Below are positions 5,765-53,792 of a DNA stretch of 64,000 nt, one piece after another (within the stretch, counting starts at the first letter, position 1; each line of letters begins with the position of its first letter). Source of the DNA: Candidatus Saccharimonadales bacterium (GTDB taxonomy: Bacteria > Patescibacteriota > Saccharimonadia > Saccharimonadales > DASZAF01); assembly GCA_035480055.1 (NCBI GenBank), contig DATIIB010000001.1:19849-83848 (forward strand), written 5' to 3'. The translations under genes and the position numbers were made by a program. The notes under the pieces are model-generated. The model worked only from the letters and a program-made list of their open reading frames with translations, ran no database searches and was not told where the DNA came from.

Positions 5765-6316
5765 TCAGGTGAGCGTTGGCTTGCTCTTCCAACCTTTATA
5801 CACCATCCACGAAGCCAACGCATAAGCCTGCTTCATCGCACCAGTAGCAATCATGGCATCGATTTGCGCTTCACTATACCAATCATATTCGATAAACTCT
5901 TCGGCATCGCCTGGCAGGTGCGCTTCCTGCAGGTTGGTTGCCACGAAAACATATGTTTTGGAATCGCTGCGGCGGTTGTCGCTGTAGTAAGCGCCGATAA
6001 GCTCCATGTCTCCACATAGCTTGCATTCTTCCATCAGCTCGCGGTTTGCGCCCTCGGCAACATCTTCATCATTAGGGACACCACCCCCTGGAAGCTGGTA
6101 CAAAACCTCGGCCGGTGGGTGGCTGTATTCACGCTGCAGCAGGATAAGTCCATCATCACGCTGAGCGATAATCGTCGCAACGTTGCCGGTGCGCTTGTAC
6201 CGAAGGTATTTTGTCTCCGTGCCATCAGGAAGCAGAACTATATCTTCAATAAGTGTGAGTCGTGGATGCTCAAAAATCGTTTCTTCACTTAGCTTCTTCC
6301 ATTTTTTGATGGGCAT
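5765..6316 (-). CDS. NUDIX hydrolase (ADP-ribose pyrophosphatase-like)
   Basis: Nudix box GGGVPNDEDVAEGANRELMEECKL. Length is 183 aa. Confidence 0.8.
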   Translation of the reverse strand: MPIKKWKKLSEETIFEHPRLTLIEDIVLLPDGTETKYLRYKRTGNVATIIAQRDDGLILLQREYSHPPAEVLYQLPGGGVPNDEDVAEGANRELMEECKLCGDMELIGAYYSDNRRSDSKTYVFVATNLQEAHLPGDAEEFIEYDWYSEAQIDAMIATGAMKQAYALASWMVYKGWKSKPTLT

Positions 6317-20294: not shown

Positions 20295-20321
20295 TTAGCA
20301 CTCGTACGTCAAGAGTGCTAA
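20295..20321 (-). promoter_or_regulatory. CIRCE operator (HrcA binding site) upstream of grpE-dnaK
   Basis: Perfect consensus TTAGCACTC-GTACGTCAA-GAGTGCTAA. Confidence 0.92.
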
Positions 20322-20325
20322 TTTT

Positions 20326-21027
20326 TTATAAAGCCGCCTCTAGCGACTGGGCAGCATGCTGTACCACATTCATGGTGTGACGATAACTTTGGCGGGTAGG
20401 CCCAAGAATGCCAATATAGCTACGGTCCGAATACGGCGATCGGAAACGACTAATAATAAGGGTGCATCCGCTACTGCGTCCGATCGGATTTTCTTCACCA
20501 ATGTAGACGTTCAGCGGAGCGAGAGGGGCGGCTTCGCGCAGCCATGGTTCGAGGTTGTCCAAAAGAGTCGCAACTTCGTAGACAGCTTGCGCTTGCACAA
20601 ATTCCGGCTGGCGAAAAAGATGCGACAGGCCACTCATATAGAGCTGCCCGCCAATGGTTGCAATGCCCAGGTTGTGAGTGATCTCCACCAAAGAATCCAC
20701 GGCTGACCGAATCGCTTGCGCAGGTTCACCCGCCCCGGCCACTCGAGTGTCAATCGCTCTCGCACTGCGATCGACAAGTCGTGGTACTTCGGTCTGGCTG
20801 GTCAGCCGATTCACGTAAAAGCGGTAGCCTTTATCGGTAGGGATCCGGCCAGCACTGGTGTGCGGCTGGGTGATGTAACCCTTTTCTTCCAAGCGCGCCA
20901 TTTCGGCTCGAATAGTCGCCGGCGACACCGCAAACAACTTGGCCAAGGTTACAGAACCAACAGGTGCGGCAACTTCGGCATATTGTTCAACAATAGAGGC
21001 AAGGATGAGGGCTTGGCGGTCAGTCAT
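20326..21027 (-). CDS. hrcA: heat-inducible transcription repressor HrcA (compact, 233 aa)
   Basis: N-terminal wHTH (RQALILASIVEQY...PVGS..LAK.....SPATIR.EMA.LEE.GY..QPHTSAGR.PT..GYR.YV) and a C-terminal GILGPTRQSY motif. CIRCE elements flank the gene. Confidence 0.9.
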   Translation of the reverse strand: MTDRQALILASIVEQYAEVAAPVGSVTLAKLFAVSPATIRAEMARLEEKGYITQPHTSAGRIPTDKGYRFYVNRLTSQTEVPRLVDRSARAIDTRVAGAGEPAQAIRSAVDSLVEITHNLGIATIGGQLYMSGLSHLFRQPEFVQAQAVYEVATLLDNLEPWLREAAPLAPLNVYIGEENPIGRSSGCTLIISRFRSPYSDRSYIGILGPTRQSYRHTMNVVQHAAQSLEAAL

Positions 21028-21048: not shown

Positions 21049-21075
21049 TTAGCACTCAGACGTCAAGAGTGCTAG
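21049..21075 (-). promoter_or_regulatory. CIRCE operator upstream of hrcA
   Basis: TTAGCACTC-AGACGTCAA-GAGTGCTAG has one mismatch to consensus. It overlaps the stop codon of the upstream gene. Confidence 0.85.
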
Positions 21076-23383: not shown

Positions 23384-23468
23384 TCTCTCCCCCTAGTTTT
23401 ATATGTAACTTAAGCTTATACTTTGGACAGCGAAATAGCAAGTAAAAGCTTATGGTATACTGCATACA

Positions 23469-23918
23469 ATGAATCTGTTAAGTGACATCAGCGAGCTTCC
23501 CCTCACCTACGTGGCTCAGGCTTATGGCTGTAGCACGTATGGCGCAAGTTCGTACGATCAATGTCCTAGCGAGAATACTTCAAACAGCAGCTCGTCCTCC
23601 TCATCGTCCTCCACAAAACACAGTAGCAGTGGAACAACCACCCCTTCTGGAGATTCCAGTGCCGATACGACCGCTCCATCAACCACTTCGCCTAGTTCTA
23701 GTTCAGCCGATCAAAGCACTACGCAACCAACCAACCCTGTTGCTGCAGCTGCCAAACATGTTGCCACAACTCATTGGAATGTCTTGCTGCCAATTATTTT
23801 CGGCCTCGCCATCTTGTTTGCGTTCCTGATACTCCTTTGGAAGCGGCGGCATCGTAAAGATGAACCATCGCCACCAAGCGACTTCTCTGGCGGCGGATTC
23901 ACTCCACCAGCTGTTTAA
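23469..23918 (+). CDS. Ser/Thr-rich protein with a single C-terminal TM helix
   Basis: 149 aa. About 80 low-complexity S/T/P residues, then WNVLLPIIFGLAILFAFLILLW and a basic stop-transfer KRRHRK. No obvious N-terminal signal peptide. Confidence 0.5.
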   Translation: MNLLSDISELPLTYVAQAYGCSTYGASSYDQCPSENTSNSSSSSSSSSTKHSSSGTTTPSGDSSADTTAPSTTSPSSSSADQSTTQPTNPVAAAAKHVATTHWNVLLPIIFGLAILFAFLILLWKRRHRKDEPSPPSDFSGGGFTPPAV

Positions 23919-25096
23919 CGAGTTCCCCACGCGGTGCGCCGTGCAAAAAGCGTAATCAACGAGTAAATACGCAGTGGTATCAAGACCGTGACATGCAGCA
24001 GACCATACACCGTAAAGAATAAAAAGTTCCGGTCTTTGGTGCGCCACACCCCATATATCGAGCGCAGCAAACCCATTCCCAAAGCCGTCAGCCCATACCA
24101 AAACGCCACACCTTCGTGACCGTGCAAGGCTGCAATCGCAGTAATGCACAGTCCTGCCAGCAGCATAAATGGCAGAAGTGCCTGCATGGCCAAATCATAG
24201 GCCATGTAAGGATGATGGTTTCGCAAATAGGTCACATTCCAGAGCATCTCTCGGTAAAATGACATGTTCCAGCGCCACTGCTGTTTCACATAGTCGGGGA
24301 AAAGCCGCTCGGGCACATGCGTTCGGGCAGAAGCCATCGGCTCGAAGATGGCCTGAAAGCCTTCTCGCAAAATCAGGTTGGTAAGGTGCCGATCATCACC
24401 AAAGGTGCACGGCCGACCCAAAAAAGTTTGCCCAATATATTTGTCCCAAACCTTTTGCAGCGCGGCGCCTCGATACATGCTTAGCGGACCAGAGCAACAC
24501 GTGACCGAGTTAAAGTAACTCTGCGCTGCCCGCTCGACATGAAATGCCGACCAGTAGCGAACCTTAATAAGACGCGTCAGCCAACTGTGCCGCCAATTAT
24601 CCGCTGTGACATCAGCAGTTACCGCGCCGATGCGGGAGTCGGCAAAGCGTGCCGCCATCACCGCCACCGCGTCCGAGGCCAGCACTGTGTCCGAATCCAC
24701 CGTGAGATACAACGTCGCATCTGGATGATTTAAGTAGCCACGATGTTGCGCCTCACGTTTGCCTGCGTTTTTGGCAAGCAGCTCAATACTCACATTGCTG
24801 AACTTGCCAAATTCCTCATACACCCATTGCAGTTGCTTACGGTTTTTGGAGCCATCATCAATCGCCACAATATGCAGATTACGATGGGTTTGGCGGCGCA
24901 GCGAGGTTAAGCACCGGCGCAGTCGCCACGGCGATTCATTATAAATTGGCACCAGCACCACCACTCGAGTAGTGAAGTCATAGCTTTTGGCCTTATGACG
25001 TTCGGCATGCCGATGCGCAAAAAAATACTGCACGCAGAGATGGCTCATACTCAGTACGCCGTAAATGATCAGAAACAATTGCAGTTCAAATGACAT
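23915..25096 (-). CDS. processive family-2 glycosyltransferase, hyaluronan synthase (HasA)/NodC/chitin-synthase-like
   Basis: VLVPIYNES, IVAIDDGS, TVDSDT, TFGDDRHLTNLIL and KQQWRWNMSFYRE (QxxRW) are present, with flanking TM helices. I chose the ATG at 25096 (MSFELQ...), preceded by GGAAGGA. The track start at 25144 overlaps the upstream gene. Confidence 0.8.
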   Translation of the reverse strand: MSFELQLFLIIYGVLSMSHLCVQYFFAHRHAERHKAKSYDFTTRVVVLVPIYNESPWRLRRCLTSLRRQTHRNLHIVAIDDGSKNRKQLQWVYEEFGKFSNVSIELLAKNAGKREAQHRGYLNHPDATLYLTVDSDTVLASDAVAVMAARFADSRIGAVTADVTADNWRHSWLTRLIKVRYWSAFHVERAAQSYFNSVTCCSGPLSMYRGAALQKVWDKYIGQTFLGRPCTFGDDRHLTNLILREGFQAIFEPMASARTHVPERLFPDYVKQQWRWNMSFYREMLWNVTYLRNHHPYMAYDLAMQALLPFMLLAGLCITAIAALHGHEGVAFWYGLTALGMGLLRSIYGVWRTKDRNFLFFTVYGLLHVTVLIPLRIYSLITLFARRTAWGTR

Positions 25097-25125
25097 AAAA
25101 TTCCTTCCGCTTGCGGTTATTACAT

Positions 25126-27045
25126 TTAGGAAAGTGCTGCCCAATAGGAGGTCGAGAGCGCCGCGCTACTTGCGAGTGTCAGCGAAGCGGGCGGACTACT
25201 CACGCCGCTCCCAAGAGTGGCAAAACGATAGGTGCCAGGGTTGGTATTTTGGTTAATAGCTCCCAGATTTCCGGCACGGTTCAAAGCTGGCATGGTGGTT
25301 GCGGTGCTGACAAAATAGACATAGTAAAAAGTACCAGCCGTCACTGCCACCCCTGCTGTCAGGGCCAGCGCTTTGGCGCCAGTACTTGCAAGCGACGCGG
25401 CAATGTCAGCAGTCAGACCGAGGCGATTACCGTTCATGTCATACAGCGCCGCATAAGACGCATTGGCAGTGAATCCAGCGCCAAGAGTGTTGACGTTCAG
25501 GTTGATAGCCGTAACCGTTCCACTCTGAGCTGCTTTTACCTTAATGAGCACCGGCGTGCCAGAAGTTGGCTGCGTGCTGTTGGCTGCGGCGATCGGATCG
25601 TAATTCCAGCCGAGATAGCTTTGCTCCCCTGGGGTAGCATCGGGGCTGAGCGAGGCACTCACCGTGCCATTACCCAGGTCATGCACATTGCCGCTTGGGT
25701 CGCGCCACTTCAGCGAGCCTTGGTCGGCATAGACAATCACTCCACCGGCTGCTGGATTAGTGGTAGGCACCGTAATCGCTTGCTTAAGGCCTAGCACTCC
25801 TGATCCGCCGCCAACATCAGAGGTAGTGGAGCCAACTTGAATATTATTGGCGCTATACAAACTGCCATTTGGTCCCATAATGAACTTGTCTATGCCAGCA
25901 TTGCGCATTTTCATCAAGTTGCCGGTTGTGCCACCATCTTCAGCATCAAAAAAGATACCTTGCGCGGCTGTGCCTGCCCCATTCGCGCGCAGCGAAAGTG
26001 CCGAAGCATTTGCGTCGCTACTTCCCGGATAAGTGTGAACAATCTTCACCGTCCCTTTGCTGCTCTCTGAGCCGTTCACGCCCATCGCGGTGCTATTTGG
26101 GTTGGTTGAGGTCACGCTGACTGCATTGCTGGTACTGCTGGTGCTGGTGCTCACTACCTCAAAACCATTAACCGTCCCTGCGTAGTCCACGTGCAAACCA
26201 GCTTGGTCAAAGGCACTGTTGAGCACAGCCACATTCATCAATCGGCCCAAAGCGCCACTTCCTGCATTGGTAAAAGTATTGAACGCCGAACCAGGATTTG
26301 TCCCTTGGTTAATAAAAAGCGTCCCGCCAGTGGAAGGCGATCCAGAGGTCACGCCAGTGGGCGCCAAAGTCAGGGTTGGCGTAGCCGGACTTGCCGTCGT
26401 GCCTGCACTTGAGCCAATCTTCAACCCGCCGCCTGTCTCGCGGACCACTGTGGTGTCCTGCGCTCCCGAACCGGCTGACCATAACAATTTGCCATCGGTA
26501 TTAATCTGAAACCGACGTGTTGTGTCGCCCGAAACCGTCACTCCAAGCGCCGCAATACCGAGCGTGGCACGCACCACAAAAAAAGCGCTCGAGGTTTGCA
26601 GCTGCCCAGAACCTGAGCGAAAGAGATTGGTGTCGCCGCCGATTGTCATTCCCGTAGAGCCGGTAGTGCTCGGGAGTAACAGCGTACTGGTACCGGCCCC
26701 AGATTCATCAATGGTAAGGCGTTGCGTAAAGGTGGGCGCGCCCAAATCACTGGCCGTCACCGTAACATTGGCGCCAGCTTTGCCATTCACCGTTTGCACT
26801 GCACTATCAGCACTGCCCAGTGAGGTTTGTACCGACTGGCCTAAGTCGCTTTTTGGAATCCCGGTGCTGGGCTTGCTATATTTGGCAGCCACCGCAGTAG
26901 CCGCGTCGGTCGCTGTCTGAGCTGCCGCGGTCATTGCGTCTTTGCACTTTAGAGTGCCGTCGTCATTATGTTCTTCCAGCAAAAACTCATTGAGGATTGC
27001 TCCCCAATTCCCTACATCACTTCCAGGGCGAGGCAAACGAGCCAT
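25126..27045 (-). CDS. large Gly/Thr/Ser/Ala-rich surface protein with a phage tail-fibre-like N-terminus
   Basis: MARLPRPGSDVGNWGAILNEFLLEEHNDDGTLK resembles the N-terminal motif of actinophage minor-tail or tail-fibre proteins, as I recall it. The rest has beta-rich T/S/G/A/N composition. The start is set at the ATG at 27045, preceded by AAGGAGG. Confidence 0.6.
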   Translation of the reverse strand: MARLPRPGSDVGNWGAILNEFLLEEHNDDGTLKCKDAMTAAAQTATDAATAVAAKYSKPSTGIPKSDLGQSVQTSLGSADSAVQTVNGKAGANVTVTASDLGAPTFTQRLTIDESGAGTSTLLLPSTTGSTGMTIGGDTNLFRSGSGQLQTSSAFFVVRATLGIAALGVTVSGDTTRRFQINTDGKLLWSAGSGAQDTTVVRETGGGLKIGSSAGTTASPATPTLTLAPTGVTSGSPSTGGTLFINQGTNPGSAFNTFTNAGSGALGRLMNVAVLNSAFDQAGLHVDYAGTVNGFEVVSTSTSSTSNAVSVTSTNPNSTAMGVNGSESSKGTVKIVHTYPGSSDANASALSLRANGAGTAAQGIFFDAEDGGTTGNLMKMRNAGIDKFIMGPNGSLYSANNIQVGSTTSDVGGGSGVLGLKQAITVPTTNPAAGGVIVYADQGSLKWRDPSGNVHDLGNGTVSASLSPDATPGEQSYLGWNYDPIAAANSTQPTSGTPVLIKVKAAQSGTVTAINLNVNTLGAGFTANASYAALYDMNGNRLGLTADIAASLASTGAKALALTAGVAVTAGTFYYVYFVSTATTMPALNRAGNLGAINQNTNPGTYRFATLGSGVSSPPASLTLASSAALSTSYWAALS

Positions 27046-27075
27046 AGACCCTCCTTTTTCTTCTTTTGGGTACAC

Positions 27076-27102
27076 AAAAAAATCCTCTGCAAAGCAGGAG
27101 AT
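27076..27102 (-). terminator. terminator/attenuator-like hairpin with a U7 tract, 30 nt upstream of the fibre-like gene
   Basis: The minus strand reads AUCUCCUGC-UUU-GCAGAGGAU followed by UUUUUUU. The 9-bp stem has one C.A mismatch and one G.U pair. Confidence 0.45.
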
Positions 27103-27168
27103 TTCTCATACCTACATACCAATGGTGTATGTTACCGTATCGTTACCATAAGCACAAGCACTTTATGA

Positions 27169-27309
27169 CGCTGGCTGGCGAGTTATTGCCTCTGAAGGAG
27201 ACTGTGGAATCGGTTTCCAAAACGATTCCAGCCGAACGCTGAGCTAGCCTTCTGGGAGAAGGTTAGCTCAAGAGTGTGCTCCAAAGAGGCGATAACTCGC
27301 CAGCCAGCG
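27169..27309. other. 141-nt near-perfect three-way-junction inverted-repeat element (unclassified structured RNA or MITE-like repeat)
   Basis: The 25-nt outer arms at 27169-27193 and 27285-27309 are complementary at 24 of 25 positions. They enclose a GGAG/CTCC extension and two hairpins (27206-27229 with a 7-bp stem, 27241-27269 with a 12-bp stem). Confidence 0.5.
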
Positions 27310-27315
27310 CTATCT

Positions 27316-29091
27316 CTAGTCTCGCTTAATTAGCACCGTAAAAGCCTCAGCCGGAATATCCACCTTGCCGAACTTCTTCATGCGCGCCTTACCCGCTTTT
27401 TGCTTTGCCCACAACTTCTTTTTGCGCGAGACATCACCGCCATACAAATGGCCGGTCACGTTTTTCTTCATGGCTTGCACATCCTCACGAGCAATAATTT
27501 TGCCACCAATCGCTGCTTGCAAACTAACTTTAAAAAGTTGCTTGGGAATGATTTCCTTGAGTCGCCCGACAATCTCTCGGCCCAACCGAGTTGCTTCGGT
27601 GCGGTGCACGATCAAACTCAAACTATCAACCCGCTCGCTGGCCACCAAAAAGTCGAGGCGCACCAGATCTTCAGCTCGATAGCCGGTGATGTCGTAATTG
27701 AATGACCCATAGCCACTGGTGAGGCTTTTGAGCTGGTCATAAAAATCGGTCAACATATTAGCCAGCGGTGCTTCAAAAGTAATCAGCGCCAGATGGTCGT
27801 CAATGTAGTCGATGTGTTTTTGCAACCCGCGCTGCGTCACAATTAACTGGATAACACCGCCCACATACGCACGCGGGCAGGCGATCTCACCCTTAATCCA
27901 AGGTTCGCGAATCTCGGCCACCTGCATCACATCTGGCAAGTCAGCGGCGTTTTTAATCACAATCGTTTCGCCAGTTTCCATCTGTACTTCATAGTCGGTC
28001 GAGGGGTTGGTGATGATCAGTTCCAGATTATATTCGCGTTCAAGCCGTTCGCGCACAATGTCCATGTGCAGTAACCCCAAAAATCCAACACGCATGCCAT
28101 GGCCCAGCACCTGACTGCTTTCGGGCGAGTACTGCAAGGCTGCATCATTGAGGGCAAGTTTTTCCAATGCGTCTTTTAGCGCCGGGTATTCATCGTTGCT
28201 GCTCGGGAAGATGCCGGCATACACAAAAGGCTTGGCCACCTGGTAACCGGGCAGGGCTTGGTGTGCGGGCTGCGAGACCAAGGTGACGGTGTCGCCCACG
28301 CGAGCCTGGGCCACGGTTTTGAAGTTGGTGACAATATAGCCAATTTGCCCCGTGCTCAGCAAAGCATCTGGTTGCATATTCGGCGTAAGGTGGCCCACTT
28401 CAAGCGCCAGCCCATCGGCTTGCGCGGCCATCATATGAATTGGCGCGTTTTTCGGCAGCGCTCCGTCCATAATGCGCACATAGAGCACCACTCCGCGATA
28501 ATCATCATAGATTGAATCAAACACCAAGGCTCGCAGTGGCGCAGCACTTTCTCCTTTTGGTGAGCGGCCAACTTCGATAATTCGCTGCAGTACTTGGTCG
28601 ACGTTCTTGCCTGTTTTGGCTGACACTTCCAGGATCTCTTCGCGCTTTACACCCAGCAAAGTGATGATTTCGTTTGCCACGCGCTCAGTGTCGGCCGCTG
28701 GCAGATCTATTTTGTTGAGCACCGGAATGATGGTCAGATCAGCCCCTAGCGCCAGGTAGACATTGGCGAGCGTCTGCGCCTGAATCCCCTGCGTGGCATC
28801 CACCACCAACAGCGCGGTTTCGCAGGCTTCCAAGCTACGCGACACTTCGTAACTAAAGTCGACATGGCCTGGCGTATCAATCAAGTTCAGCTCATAGCCT
28901 TGATAGTTCATGCGCACCGGCTGCAGCTTGATGGTAATCCCCTTTTCGCGCTCCAAATCCATGCGGTCCAGCAATTGCTCTTTCATTTCGCGCGCCGCAA
29001 CAGTGCCGGTTACTTCAAGCAACCGATCAGCCAGCGTGGACTTGCCATGATCGATATGAGCGATAATACAGAAGTTACGTGTTTTCTCCAT
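27316..29091 (-). CDS. lepA: translation elongation factor 4 (LepA)
   Basis: NFCIIAHIDHGKSTLADR, DTPGHVDF and NKIDL GTPase motifs, plus the LepA-specific C-terminal domain ending in ...KKFGKVDIPAEAF. Confidence 0.96.
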   Translation of the reverse strand: MEKTRNFCIIAHIDHGKSTLADRLLEVTGTVAAREMKEQLLDRMDLEREKGITIKLQPVRMNYQGYELNLIDTPGHVDFSYEVSRSLEACETALLVVDATQGIQAQTLANVYLALGADLTIIPVLNKIDLPAADTERVANEIITLLGVKREEILEVSAKTGKNVDQVLQRIIEVGRSPKGESAAPLRALVFDSIYDDYRGVVLYVRIMDGALPKNAPIHMMAAQADGLALEVGHLTPNMQPDALLSTGQIGYIVTNFKTVAQARVGDTVTLVSQPAHQALPGYQVAKPFVYAGIFPSSNDEYPALKDALEKLALNDAALQYSPESSQVLGHGMRVGFLGLLHMDIVRERLEREYNLELIITNPSTDYEVQMETGETIVIKNAADLPDVMQVAEIREPWIKGEIACPRAYVGGVIQLIVTQRGLQKHIDYIDDHLALITFEAPLANMLTDFYDQLKSLTSGYGSFNYDITGYRAEDLVRLDFLVASERVDSLSLIVHRTEATRLGREIVGRLKEIIPKQLFKVSLQAAIGGKIIAREDVQAMKKNVTGHLYGGDVSRKKKLWAKQKAGKARMKKFGKVDIPAEAFTVLIKRD

Positions 29092-46766: not shown

Positions 46767-49472
46767 CTAGGTTTCGGTATCTTTGGTGAAACGATCGAGC
46801 GCCGGGTTGATGGCCTTCATTATCACCACCAGGCCAACAGATAAAATAGCGATTGTCACCCAGCTTTCCCAATCGACGCGCACGAGTTTAAAGACATCGG
46901 CAAGCCGCTGGACGTAGAGCACTAGCAGCGTGGCACCCAGCGAGCCAATCACGCTCAGCGTTAACCAAAGATTCGAGAACCACGGCAGCCGATACTCCAT
47001 GCGAATATCCACAAGCCTGGCAAACGTGTAGACAATGATCGCCGTAAAGGCCACCGCGCTGCCACGCATCAGGCTGTGCTGGCTGATAACATGGCTGTAC
47101 TGCAACAGAATCACGCCACTCATCAATAGGCCAAAAGCCACAATTTCGATCCACACTCGCCGGGTGATAATTGCGCGCTGAAATTCTGCTGGCTGACGGC
47201 GCATGACATTTTTAGCAATACTGTCCGAGCCAAGGGCAATCGCCGGCAGCCCATCGGTGACAATGTTCACAAACAGCATCTGTGAGGCGGTCAACACCAA
47301 ATTACCATGCAGCAAGATACCGCCCAAAACCACACCGACCTCCGCAATGTTGGTACTCAGCAGAAAGTTCACAAACTTGCGCATGTTATCAAAAATGCCG
47401 CGGCCTTCTTCAATCGCCGCAATGATCGTTTTGAATTGATCGTCCAGCAGGATAAGATCGCTCGCCTCTTTGGCCGCATCGGTGCCGGTAATGCCCATCG
47501 CAATGCCGATGTTCGCGGCCTTCAGCGCCGGGGCATCATTCACACCATCGCCAGTCATTGCCACTTGATGGCCGCCAAGTTGCAGCGCTTTGACAATGCG
47601 CAGTTTGTGCTCGGGATTAACCCGCGCGTACACGCCGATGCGTTCGGCTCGCTGGCCCAAAGCGCCATCGCTCATTGTATCGATATCCACGCCGTGGATC
47701 GCCTCGCCAGTAATGCCCAGCTCTTTGGCGATGGCTTGAGCGGTCTCCAGGTTGTCACCGGTGATCATCACCACCCGCATGCCAGCCTCTTGTTGCACGC
47801 GTTGAATCACCTCTTTTACTTCCATTCGCGGCGGATCCATAATGCCGATCAACCCTACAAATACCAGGTGCTCCTCTAGTTTTTCGTGATGCGGCTTGGC
47901 CATTTCCTGGCGCGAAGCCACGGCCAGAACCCGCAGCGCTTGGCTGGTCATGGTGCTGGTTGCGGCTAAGATTTCGTGATGCATGTCTTCGGTCAGAGGC
48001 TGCACTTTGCCATGCACCAAAATTCGATCACAGTGCGCCAGTAACGTTTCCGGCGCACCTTTTGAGGCAATCAAAAAGCCTTTTTCGTGGCTATGCAAGG
48101 TACTCATCATCTTGCGTTCCGAACTAAATGGCATTTCGTGCAGGCGCGGACGACTTTCGGCAAGAGCCGCACGGTCAATGCCCAGTTTTTCGGCAGCCAC
48201 CAGTAAGCTGAGTTCGGTTGGGTCGCCGAGCAATTCATCCCTCGCCGTAAATGTAGCGTTGTTACTCAGGACACCCAACTGCAACAGGTGTTGCATGTCT
48301 TCAGTAGCCGAAGTTACCTGGCCTTTTACTCGCAATTCACCTTGCGGTTCGTAACCTTCACCGGTGACTTCGTGCAGTTGGCCACCCTGCCACAAGGCAC
48401 GGACGGTCATTTCTCCGCGGGTTAATGTGCCTGTTTTGTCAGTGCAAATAACATCGGTCGAGCCAAGCGATTCCACTGCCGCCAAGCGCCGCACCAAAGC
48501 GTGCCGGCTGGCCATTCGCCGCGCGCCCATAGCTAAAGAAATACGCACCACAAAAGCCAGACCTTCGGGAATGGCCGCCACTGCCAGCGCCACGGCCGCG
48601 GTGAAGGCAAAAATAATCCGATGCACTGTGTCGCCTTCAATAGTCCGGTCGTGCAGCAAAATGGCAATAAAGGCCACGGCACAAATCGCCACCACCACCT
48701 GACCAATGCGTTTGCCCAGTTCATCCAACTTTTCTTGCATGGGGGTTTGTTGATCCCCAATTTCGCTCACCAAGGTAGCGATGCGGCCAATCTCAGCCTG
48801 AGCGCCAGTCGCCACCACAATCGCCCGGCCGGTACCACTTGCCACCACAGTGCCAGAAAAAATCATGTTCCGTTGATCGCCGAGTGCTTGATCGCTGCCA
48901 GCCAGCGTAGTAATGGTTTTGGGCTGCGGCGCTGATTCGCCGGTCAGACTCGCTTCGTTGAGGCGCAGCATATTGGCATTTATGAGGCGAGCATCAGCCG
49001 GTACTTTTTGACCTTCCTCCAGCAAGAGCACATCGCCAGGAACGAGCTCGCGCGTTGCCACCTTCACTTCCCGGCCACCACGAAGCACGCGGGCGTCATA
49101 ACTGACCAACTTTCGCAGCGCTTGCACAGTGCGTTCAGCTTTGAACTCGTTCAAAAAACCGATCAGTGCAATCGCGATCACAATCGCATAAATCAGCAGC
49201 GCTTCCACCGGCGTTTGATGCGTTTGGGTCACTGCAATCCCAAGCGAAACCGTGGCCGCCAGTAGCAACACAATAATAAGCACGTCGCTGAACTGATTAA
49301 GGAGCAGACGGAGAGGATTGTTCCGAGAAGCGGTGTGCAGTTCGTTTGGACCATATGCCGCCTGACGCTCACGCACCTGTCCAGGCTGCAGGCCAATATG
49401 CAGGTCAACTTCTTGCACCCGCGCGACCTCTTTAGCTGAGAGACTATACCACTTTTTGTGCATCTGTTTCAT
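46767..49472 (-). CDS. cation-transporting P-type ATPase (P2-type, Ca2+/Mg2+-ATPase-like)
   Basis: 901 aa. TGES actuator motif, phosphorylation site ICTDKTGTLT, MITGDN and hinge MTGDGVNDAPALK. The N-terminal cation-ATPase-N motif L...EV......GL....V..R...YGPNEL is also present. Confidence 0.92.
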   Translation of the reverse strand: MKQMHKKWYSLSAKEVARVQEVDLHIGLQPGQVRERQAAYGPNELHTASRNNPLRLLLNQFSDVLIIVLLLAATVSLGIAVTQTHQTPVEALLIYAIVIAIALIGFLNEFKAERTVQALRKLVSYDARVLRGGREVKVATRELVPGDVLLLEEGQKVPADARLINANMLRLNEASLTGESAPQPKTITTLAGSDQALGDQRNMIFSGTVVASGTGRAIVVATGAQAEIGRIATLVSEIGDQQTPMQEKLDELGKRIGQVVVAICAVAFIAILLHDRTIEGDTVHRIIFAFTAAVALAVAAIPEGLAFVVRISLAMGARRMASRHALVRRLAAVESLGSTDVICTDKTGTLTRGEMTVRALWQGGQLHEVTGEGYEPQGELRVKGQVTSATEDMQHLLQLGVLSNNATFTARDELLGDPTELSLLVAAEKLGIDRAALAESRPRLHEMPFSSERKMMSTLHSHEKGFLIASKGAPETLLAHCDRILVHGKVQPLTEDMHHEILAATSTMTSQALRVLAVASRQEMAKPHHEKLEEHLVFVGLIGIMDPPRMEVKEVIQRVQQEAGMRVVMITGDNLETAQAIAKELGITGEAIHGVDIDTMSDGALGQRAERIGVYARVNPEHKLRIVKALQLGGHQVAMTGDGVNDAPALKAANIGIAMGITGTDAAKEASDLILLDDQFKTIIAAIEEGRGIFDNMRKFVNFLLSTNIAEVGVVLGGILLHGNLVLTASQMLFVNIVTDGLPAIALGSDSIAKNVMRRQPAEFQRAIITRRVWIEIVAFGLLMSGVILLQYSHVISQHSLMRGSAVAFTAIIVYTFARLVDIRMEYRLPWFSNLWLTLSVIGSLGATLLVLYVQRLADVFKLVRVDWESWVTIAILSVGLVVIMKAINPALDRFTKDTET

Positions 49473-50255: not shown

Positions 50256-50626
50256 ATGTGGTCAAACGCGCCAATGGCCAAAGCCAACCCTTTGACCCCG
50301 AAAAGCTGTACCGGAGCGTCTATGCCGCCTGCCTCAGCGTTCAAACGCCTTCGGGCGAAGCCCAACTCACCGCTCGCCGCGTGTTTCACGATATGCAACC
50401 CTGGCTCGAATCCAAAGAAGAGATAACCACAGCCGATGTCCGTCGCTTGGCCGCGCATCACCTGAGCACCTACAATCCACACGCCGCGCATTTATTCGCC
50501 AGCCAGCCACACCTTTTGCAGCACGATCCGCACTTTATGACCGACACGCCGCAGCGCAGCACCTTCCCTAATTACTCTCACCCGACCTGGCTGGATATTG
50601 GCAAAAAAGGACACTGGGACAGTTAA
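50249..50626 (+). CDS. stand-alone ATP-cone domain protein
   Basis: MVDVVKRANGQSQPFDPEKLYRSVYAAC...ITTADVRRLAAHHL fits the ATP-cone pattern (V.KR.G....F...K......A). There is no NrdR zinc ribbon. The start is set at the ATG at 50249. Confidence 0.65.
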   Translation: MVDVVKRANGQSQPFDPEKLYRSVYAACLSVQTPSGEAQLTARRVFHDMQPWLESKEEITTADVRRLAAHHLSTYNPHAAHLFASQPHLLQHDPHFMTDTPQRSTFPNYSHPTWLDIGKKGHWDS

Positions 50627-53658: not shown

Positions 53659-53680
53659 GGACCAAACCACCTCTCTATTA

Positions 53681-53720
53681 CCAAAGAAAAAGACCCACCT
53701 GAGTGAGTCTTTTTCTTTGG
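53681..53720. terminator. 14-bp perfect hairpin between the GH18 gene and tRNA-fMet (bidirectional terminator candidate)
   Basis: CCAAAGAAAAAGAC-N12-GTCTTTTTCTTTGG. The right arm overlaps the encoded CCA end of the minus-strand tRNA. Confidence 0.5.
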
Positions 53721-53792
53721 TAGCGGGAGTAGGATTCGAACCTACGACCTCGTGGTTATGAGCCACGCGAGCTGCCGCTGCTCCATCCCGCG
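53718..53792 (-). tRNA. initiator tRNA-fMet (anticodon CAU), CCA encoded
   Basis: Reverse complement is CGCGGGA-TG-GAGC-AGCGGCA-GCTC-G-CGTGG-CTCATAA-CCACG-AGGTC-GTAGG-TTCGAAT-CCTAC-TCCCGCT-ACCA. Position 1 (C) is unpaired with 72 (U), the bacterial initiator hallmark. G:C pairs lie at the base of the anticodon loop. Confidence 0.85.

Follow-up and report, generated by a model that had tools for sequence, protein, structure and literature searches.

Correia elements (NEMIS) of Neisseria are about 100–160 bp long, carry terminal inverted repeats of approximately 25 bp, have copy numbers from tens to hundreds and show a TA target duplication. They are co-transcribed as long hairpins, can be substrates of RNase III and can alter neighbouring promoters. 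The REP/BIME and ERIC (IRU) sequences of enterobacteria are transcribed palindromes located just past stop codons, where they can stabilise the upstream mRNA. A high copy number in the genome defines both groups, and the REP sequences, which are without target-site duplication, are defined also by an associated RAYT transposase. Another compact type of intergenic arrangement is represented by promoter-coupled terminators, in which the -10 hexamer comes after the T-tract of the terminator, and transcription starts about 10 bp past the termination site (bioRxiv 10.64898/2026.08.19.745784). In this work, a 141-nt nested palindrome was analyzed that is located between the lepA gene and a gene for a fibre-like protein in a 64,000-nt stretch of contig DATIIB010000001.1 of a Candidatus Saccharimonadales bacterium; this whole stretch is referred to below as the window. 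A literature search for repeats similar to miniature inverted-repeat transposable elements (MITEs), for mapped promoters or start sites and for terminators in Saccharibacteria or Patescibacteria returned nothing relevant.

By description, the element is similar to Correia elements and to bacterial MITEs in its size, its terminal inverted repeats, its lack of coding capacity and its intergenic position next to gene ends, and, as for Correia elements, its presence differs between related genomes. Unlike Correia elements, it was seen in one copy and without a duplication, its sequence resembles nothing in the collections searched, and its interior consists of two perfect or near-perfect hairpins that form a three-way junction, whereas a Correia element is one long imperfect palindrome. 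The location just past a stop codon is shared with REP/BIME and ERIC, and the absence of a target-site duplication with REP; in contrast to these families, no second copy accompanies it in the source contig as far as the contig was covered (see below). With moderate confidence, we interpret the element as a young palindromic insertion, MITE-like or generated locally, that would be co-transcribed with lepA and lies beside an old control region of the fibre-like gene. The element is not a ligand sensor or a conserved RNA gene.

The element starts 6 nt past the lepA stop codon, and the parts of its fold are listed in Table 1. Its stems together comprise 51 bp with only two transitions, which fits a recent origin. 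When folded alone, the 141 nt gave a free energy of -91.6 kcal/mol in the plus sense, compared with -44.2 +/- 3.9 kcal/mol for dinucleotide shuffles (z = -12.1), and -81.5 kcal/mol in the minus sense (z = -10.7). For the spacer folded as 280 nt, the z-scores of the two senses were -9.3 and -5.9. The GC content of the element is 55%, while that of the remaining spacer is 38%. The element is non-coding, and its sole overlap is with a spurious open reading frame of 58 aa that begins with TTG. The spacer was base-for-base identical in two Logan assemblies of other runs (SRR9179560 and SRR9179562; L093 and L094), and, since these are independent assemblies of the same strain, the structure is not an assembly artefact. 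The closing arms behind the lepA stop codon, the GGAG/CTCC extension and the two inner hairpins had already been described in a first-pass annotation of the window made from the sequence alone, and they were confirmed by the inverted-repeat analysis and by the folding scores. The same applies to its other descriptive claims, namely the ACATAC...GTATGT hairpin, the U7 hairpin on the minus strand and the stretch of about 30 nt before the ATG that contains only the Shine–Dalgarno sequence.

The lepA loci of the closest relatives (82–87% LepA identity) and the loci of homologues of the fibre-like protein were then used for comparison. The spacer after lepA is 270 nt long in the window, and the element is absent from the spacers of L002/L003 (139 nt; LepA identity 87%), L004 (168 nt; LepA identity 86%) and L095 (144 nt; fibre-like protein identity 77%). 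In one alignment (A1), the gaps of L002/L003 and L004 match exactly the 141-nt element, and in L095 only 24 nt separate the lepA stop codon from the -35 hexamer of the promoter motif described below. All these element-free relatives keep the order of lepA followed by a gene whose product begins with the motif 'MxRLPxPG'. At the site of the element, L002 contains a small hairpin, and the short spacer of L095 is without an obvious hairpin. Judging from these loci, the 141-nt junction is specific to the lineage of the window. The pattern corresponds to filled and empty sites, although the relatives are distant (86–87% LepA identity) and the exact empty-site junction is unreadable.

Among the origins proposed in the first-pass annotation, a MITE-like repeat fits these data best. 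Terminal inverted repeats of 25 nt, a size of 141 nt without coding capacity, presence or absence at an orthologous site and a GC content that differs from that of the surrounding spacer all agree with it; the duplication expected of such a repeat is absent, and no second copy was found in the DNA searched.

The spacer of L005/L006/L032 (328 nt; LepA identity 87%) is also without the element, the site being occupied by another insert, about 190 nt long (L005 5553-5743, identical in L006 and L032). This insert has a 23-nt inverted repeat with 96% complementarity, an inner hairpin ATTCCGAA/TTCGGAAT and three GTCATCCTG direct repeats at 21-nt spacing; the regular spacing of the repeats resembles that of protein-binding iterons. 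Beyond a weak likeness of the termini, no similarity was found between the L005/L006 insert and the element of the window. Both inserts open with CGC(T/A)GGCTG and close with CAGCG, which hints weakly at shared ends; this likeness was spotted only after the alignment and is too short to carry weight.

Table 1. Position of the element, of neighbouring signals and genes and of other features of the window.
Feature	Position	Strand	Description
lepA (elongation factor 4)	27316..29091	minus	591 aa; open reading frame and translation; Pfam GTP_EFTU, EFG_C, LepA_C
Nested palindrome, Y-shaped three-way junction	27169..27309	either	141 nt; inverted repeats and fold
Arms of the closing stem	27169-27193 / 27285-27309		25 nt each; 24/25 complementary (96%)
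Stem extension inside the arms	27197-27200 / 27279-27282		GGAG/CTCC
Inner hairpin 1	27205-27216 / 27219-27230		
Inner hairpin 2	27240-27253 / 27257-27270		13/14 paired
Sigma-70-like promoter motif	27129..27157	minus	-35 TTGTGC (27157-27152), 17-nt spacer, -10 TAACAT (27134-27129)
Palindrome ACATAC-N7-GTATGT	27114-27119 / 27127-27132	either	6 bp; overlaps the -10 hexamer and the predicted start
Terminator-like hairpin with U7	27076..27108	minus	stem about 27083-27104, U-run 27082-27076; -11.2 kcal/mol
Shine–Dalgarno sequence GGAGGG	27049..27054	minus	3 nt 5' of the ATG at 27045; sequence
Fibre-like gene	25126..27045	minus	639 aa; Pfam PF07212 Hyaluronidase_1/HylP; translation, Pfam and homologues
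SAM riboswitch RF00162	36331-36446	minus	48.2 bits (threshold 44.4)
CIRCE operators (two copies)	20295-20320; 21049-21074		TAGCACTC-N9-GAGTGCTA; before grpE/hrcA
hrcA	about 20326-21027	minus	grpE downstream
Hairpin	53679-53722		20-nt arms, 95% complementary, 4-nt loop
tRNA gene	53721-53792	minus	its end abuts the hairpin

The part of the spacer between the element and the fibre-like gene contains a motif that is predicted to be the promoter of this gene, with a start near 27122. Two alignments (A1 and A2) and a motif scan revealed a block common to seven 'MxRLPxPG' leaders of six lineages (the window, L002, L095, L005, L004 and two leaders in L096), which consists of TTG(T/A)(G/A)(C/T)TT(A/T)TG(G/C)..., a spacer of 17–18 nt and TAnnAT. 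TTG at the -35 hexamer is invariant in all seven leaders, as are T, A and the final T at the -10 hexamer. The motif of the window matches the full consensus at 7 of 12 positions and was not listed by a consensus scan. In the 96 loci scanned, the motif occurs solely 5' of 'MxRLPxPG' genes, and only once in the window; the search for it in IMG/VR gave 0 matches. Promoters of the form TTGACG-17/18-TAnnnT are embedded in two CIRCE operators of the same genome, which indicates that this promoter type is in use there. The lepA gene of L096 has a hairpin-U5 terminator of its own 5' of the motif, and the motif recurs before a second 'MxRLP' gene of this locus. This layout shows that transcription of a unit distinct from lepA starts at the motif. 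Since the element lies upstream of the predicted promoter, the junction belongs to the 3' region of lepA and is outside the predicted 5' leader of the fibre-like gene.

The short palindrome at the -10 hexamer has counterparts at the equivalent position in L002 (about 5830-5850), L005 (about 5786-5808) and L095 (about 136-158), where the sequence is TATACAC-N-GTGTATA. Thus, the palindromic character at the -10 hexamer is maintained while the sequence shifts between the window and these three loci, which points to an operator at which a dimeric repressor would act on the fibre-gene family. Alternatively, it is possible that the palindrome is a hairpin formed only in the read-through RNA of lepA.

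Downstream of the predicted start, a terminator-like hairpin with a U-run was found. Its stem has one internal mismatch, because of which it was missed by a simple terminator scan. Hairpins followed by U5–U7 occupy the same position, with differing stems, in L002, L095, L005, L004 and one leader of L096 (L096a); all leaders but one carry such a structure, with stabilities from -7.7 to -17 kcal/mol. A position that remains constant while the sequence changes resembles the behaviour of a real intrinsic terminator. The hairpin with U7 is the only terminator-like signal after lepA, so most likely it ends the lepA transcripts. Since the one conserved promoter-like motif is located 5' of it, transcription of the fibre-like gene and of the following GT2 glycosyltransferase gene must pass the hairpin. 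Probably, the hairpin with U7 has two roles, as the terminator of lepA and as the beginning of the fibre-gene 5' leader. The purine-rich block at the Shine–Dalgarno sequence is conserved as well (alignment A2).

The arrangement is similar to promoter-coupled terminators in that a short intergenic DNA with tightly packed signals serves both as the end of one transcription unit and as the beginning of the following one. Unlike in those terminators, the order in the window is reversed, with the promoter first and the hairpin and U-run after it. No -10-like hexamer was found after the U7 tract, where the sequence is GTGTAC and not TAnnnT, and the model of a promoter-coupled terminator was rejected.

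According to the interpretation that we favour, the spacer would consist of an old and a young part. The old part (27045-27168) would be the control region of the fibre-like gene, comprising the promoter, the -10 palindrome, the hairpin with U7, the Shine–Dalgarno sequence and the ATG. The young part (27169-27309) would be a lineage-specific non-coding insertion placed past the lepA stop codon and ahead of the -35 hexamer, which may have arisen through a MITE-like insertion or in place through template switching; both origins are consistent with the near-perfect helices. Transcripts of lepA would cross the insert as well as the embedded promoter before ending at the U7 hairpin, so that the 3' untranslated region (UTR) of lepA would be approximately 240 nt long and carry a very stable Y-shaped RNA. 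Every transcript from the fibre promoter would read through the hairpin and U7, which would be a promoter-proximal leader element and a possible attenuator. At most, side effects of the insert may include shielding of the lepA message from 3' exonucleases and a 25-bp duplex available to RNase III. In addition, the insert displaces the A/T-rich DNA found next to the -35 hexamer of the relatives, and it may thereby shift the strength of the promoter. The transcript boundaries, the origin of the insert and the effects on expression are all deduced here from the arrangement of the signals.

If this interpretation is true, the event itself is an ordinary one, namely a palindromic insertion in a 3' UTR, and a riboswitch cannot be deduced from a spectacular fold. 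The comparison exposed, as a more useful by-product, a putative conserved promoter, a palindrome and a terminator-like leader dedicated to the 'MxRLPxPG' genes. The immediate succession of a promoter and a terminator-like hairpin makes this leader a candidate for attenuation that can be tested, in an organism from which very few regulators are known.

Several results weigh against this interpretation, among them those of the search for further copies, which had been proposed in the first-pass annotation. No second copy of the element or of an arm was found in 82 kb of the source contig (the 64-kb window and 20 kb beyond its ends), which leaves about 83% of the contig uncovered. In the window itself, the partial arm matches at 48897-48925 and 50488-50507 were chance GCCAGCCAGC strings in coding sequence. 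Searches by blastn, nhmmer and a covariance model (R1, built from the single sequence of the element with its 51 bp) gave no copy in 544 kb comprising the window and the lepA loci of the relatives and of more distant bacteria. An exact 18-mer of the arm was searched for in 185,579 species-representative GTDB genomes, a set that does not include the source genome, and gave 25 single matches, none with both arms; the matches were in unrelated taxa and phyla, and about 17 were expected by chance according to our own estimate. The arm 18-mer had 0 matches in IMG/VR, and blastn against phage and plasmid sets found none. A metagenome scan seeded with LepA recovered two close relatives only, since the peptide seeds were poorly conserved. 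Thus, the proposed search was carried out on relatives and large collections and yielded no extra copies, with the source genome covered for 82 kb only. As no second copy was found, mobility is unproven; a low-copy family of the element may be present in the source genome.

The flanks of the element, ...AGATAG before it and TCATAAAG... after it in the lepA sense, contain no direct repeat of at least 2 nt, so a target-site duplication is absent. Large structured inserts at the same spot in two sister lineages are a mild anomaly, and they could point to an insertion hot spot, or to selection for a strong structure at this site. The near-perfect helices could also be kept by selection. Finally, the promoter, its start site and the termination are predictions made in silico.

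The alternative that survives best is a lineage-specific functional RNA in the lepA 3' UTR, maintained by selection; we regard it as unlikely. Such an RNA could be a stabiliser of the mRNA, a site for RNase III, an insulator of the promoter against lepA read-through or a source of a 3'-UTR-derived small RNA. It would account for the exceptionally stable fold and for the placement of the element exactly between the stop codon and the next promoter, and the presence of another large structure in L005/L006 and of a small hairpin in L002 at the same site makes convergent selection possible. However, perfect helices of 25 bp are rare among functional RNAs, and L095 (without an obvious hairpin) and L004 (without a comparable insert) keep the same gene arrangement. 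Covariation in homologous intergenic regions had been named in the first-pass annotation as the mark of a functional RNA, but the junction is absent from all relatives fetched, and without a homologue in any of them there is no supporting covariation. The interpretation favoured here agrees with the search for known RNA families: Rfam 15 gave no match in the spacer, either at the gathering thresholds or at E <= 10, and in the whole window at the gathering thresholds it listed five tRNAs and one S-adenosylmethionine (SAM) riboswitch, all outside the spacer.

A second alternative, which is rather doubtful, concerns the origin of the element only and overlaps with the interpretation favoured here. 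It supposes that the element grew in place from an ancestral lepA 3' hairpin by hairpin-templated synthesis (quasi-palindrome correction or template switching) and is a single-copy accident that was never mobile. Single occurrence wherever it was searched for, the absence of a target-site duplication and the near-perfect state of all three helices are what this model predicts, and the small hairpin of L002 and the nested palindrome of L005 with its 21-nt-spaced direct repeats resemble the products of local growth. Nevertheless, no nearby donor sequence was found for the arms or the inner hairpins, and the GC content of the element, 17 points above that of the surrounding spacer, suggests a foreign origin.

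A still more speculative proposal is that the two inserts are the first examples seen of nested-palindrome elements forming a class of their own in Saccharibacteria. Such elements would target the site that separates the stop codon of lepA from the promoter of the variable surface-fibre locus, or be selected there, and would act as RNA or DNA insulators or as modulators of expression for this host-interaction locus; we consider this improbable.

It had also been argued in the first-pass annotation that the element may encode a plus-strand non-coding RNA antisense to the transcription of lepA and the fibre-like gene, and this is very improbable. Both imperfections of the stems (T27187:G27291 and G27247:T27263) are indeed G.U pairs in the plus-sense RNA and A.C in the minus-sense RNA, and the plus-sense fold is 10 kcal/mol more stable. 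But a transition in a stem always leaves a G.U pair in one of the two transcripts and A.C in the opposite one, and two transitions favour one given strand with p = 0.25 by chance under neutrality, so the orientation does not support this model. A weak promoter-like match was found about 290 nt upstream (26853-26882), with no plus-strand promoter match adjoining the element; however, this match scores 9/12, lies inside the fibre-like gene and does not exceed the level of the shuffles (one found, 0.5 expected). In addition, there is no plus-strand terminator after 27309 and no homologue in the relatives.

The least probable model, in which all of the 240-nt region acts as an attenuator, either riboswitch-like or dependent on a protein, whose junction senses a signal for the U7 terminator, correctly notes that a terminator-like hairpin lies 30 nt 5' of the ATG with no promoter between and that the position of hairpin and U-run is conserved in the relatives, so that transcription must pass the hairpin as the first-pass annotation had stated, but the sensor is largely refuted by the comparison with the relatives: the junction is located upstream of the conserved promoter motif and outside the predicted 5' leader, L002, L004 and L095 keep the promoter, the hairpin with U-run and the 'MxRLPxPG' gene without it, no Rfam riboswitch matches it and no alternative pairing of the junction with the terminator stem was seen. 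The fibre-gene leader is similar to that of the SAM riboswitch of the window in having a terminator-like hairpin and a U-run in the 5' leader shortly before the Shine–Dalgarno sequence; unlike the SAM riboswitch, the junction has no family match, lies 5' of the promoter and is not conserved. It is the short leader hairpin that is the remaining possible candidate for an attenuator.

Some other classes were tried and rejected. The termini CGCTGG...CCAGCG include no RYYYAAC/GTTRRRY core sites as expected of an integron attC site. The hammerhead core motif CUGAUGA was absent on inspection by eye. No integrase or reverse-transcriptase domain was found among the called neighbours, and a retron, diversity-generating retroelement or integron context is thus not indicated.

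The LepA protein and its homologues are annotated as belonging to Candidatus Saccharimonadales (TM7/Saccharibacteria), the homologues under the name translation elongation factor 4. The conserved N-terminus of the fibre-like protein is MARLPRPGSDVGNWG. On the 3' side of the spacer, the gene order is the fibre-like gene, the GT2 glycosyltransferase gene, then tatA/tatC, gmk and hrcA-grpE-dnaK.

A variable locus extends from lepA to tatA (window about 23400-27045; L004 5945-9504; L086 11999-14059; L096 680-4911). Depending on the lineage, its cargo is a HylP-like fibre gene with GT2, a cellulase gene, a gene for a GH26-like protein, a gene for a pectate-lyase-like beta-helix protein, or none; L088 and L089 are without the fibre locus, and tatA is close behind lepA in both. 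The proteins of the locus have in common the N-terminus MxRLPxPGxDxGxWGxILN, and the same promoter motif is found in most lineages. The interval looks like a cassette-swapping surface or host-attachment locus, and it is plausible that the HylP-like or tail-fibre-like 'MxRLPxPG' genes are host-attachment genes of these epibionts. No att-like direct repeats of at least 20 nt were found between the 3' end of lepA and the tatA side of the locus.

A gene for a large serine recombinase with Resolvase and Recombinase domains was found in L089 (3893-5446) together with a run of small unannotated genes. It is located a few kb upstream of the tilS-ftsH-murJ-lepA block, which points to the integration of a mobile element close to this conserved block in L089.

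The SAM riboswitch of the window lies directly 5' of metK, the S-adenosylmethionine synthetase gene. Each of the two CIRCE copies before the minus-strand genes grpE/hrcA has a TTGACG -35 hexamer in its loop and a TAnnnT -10 hexamer after it, and the layout of CIRCE, hrcA and grpE is the classic HrcA-controlled heat-shock arrangement, here in a Saccharimonadales genome. The long hairpin at the end of the minus-strand tRNA gene (Table 1) is probably a strong terminator shared with the gene neighbouring this tRNA gene.

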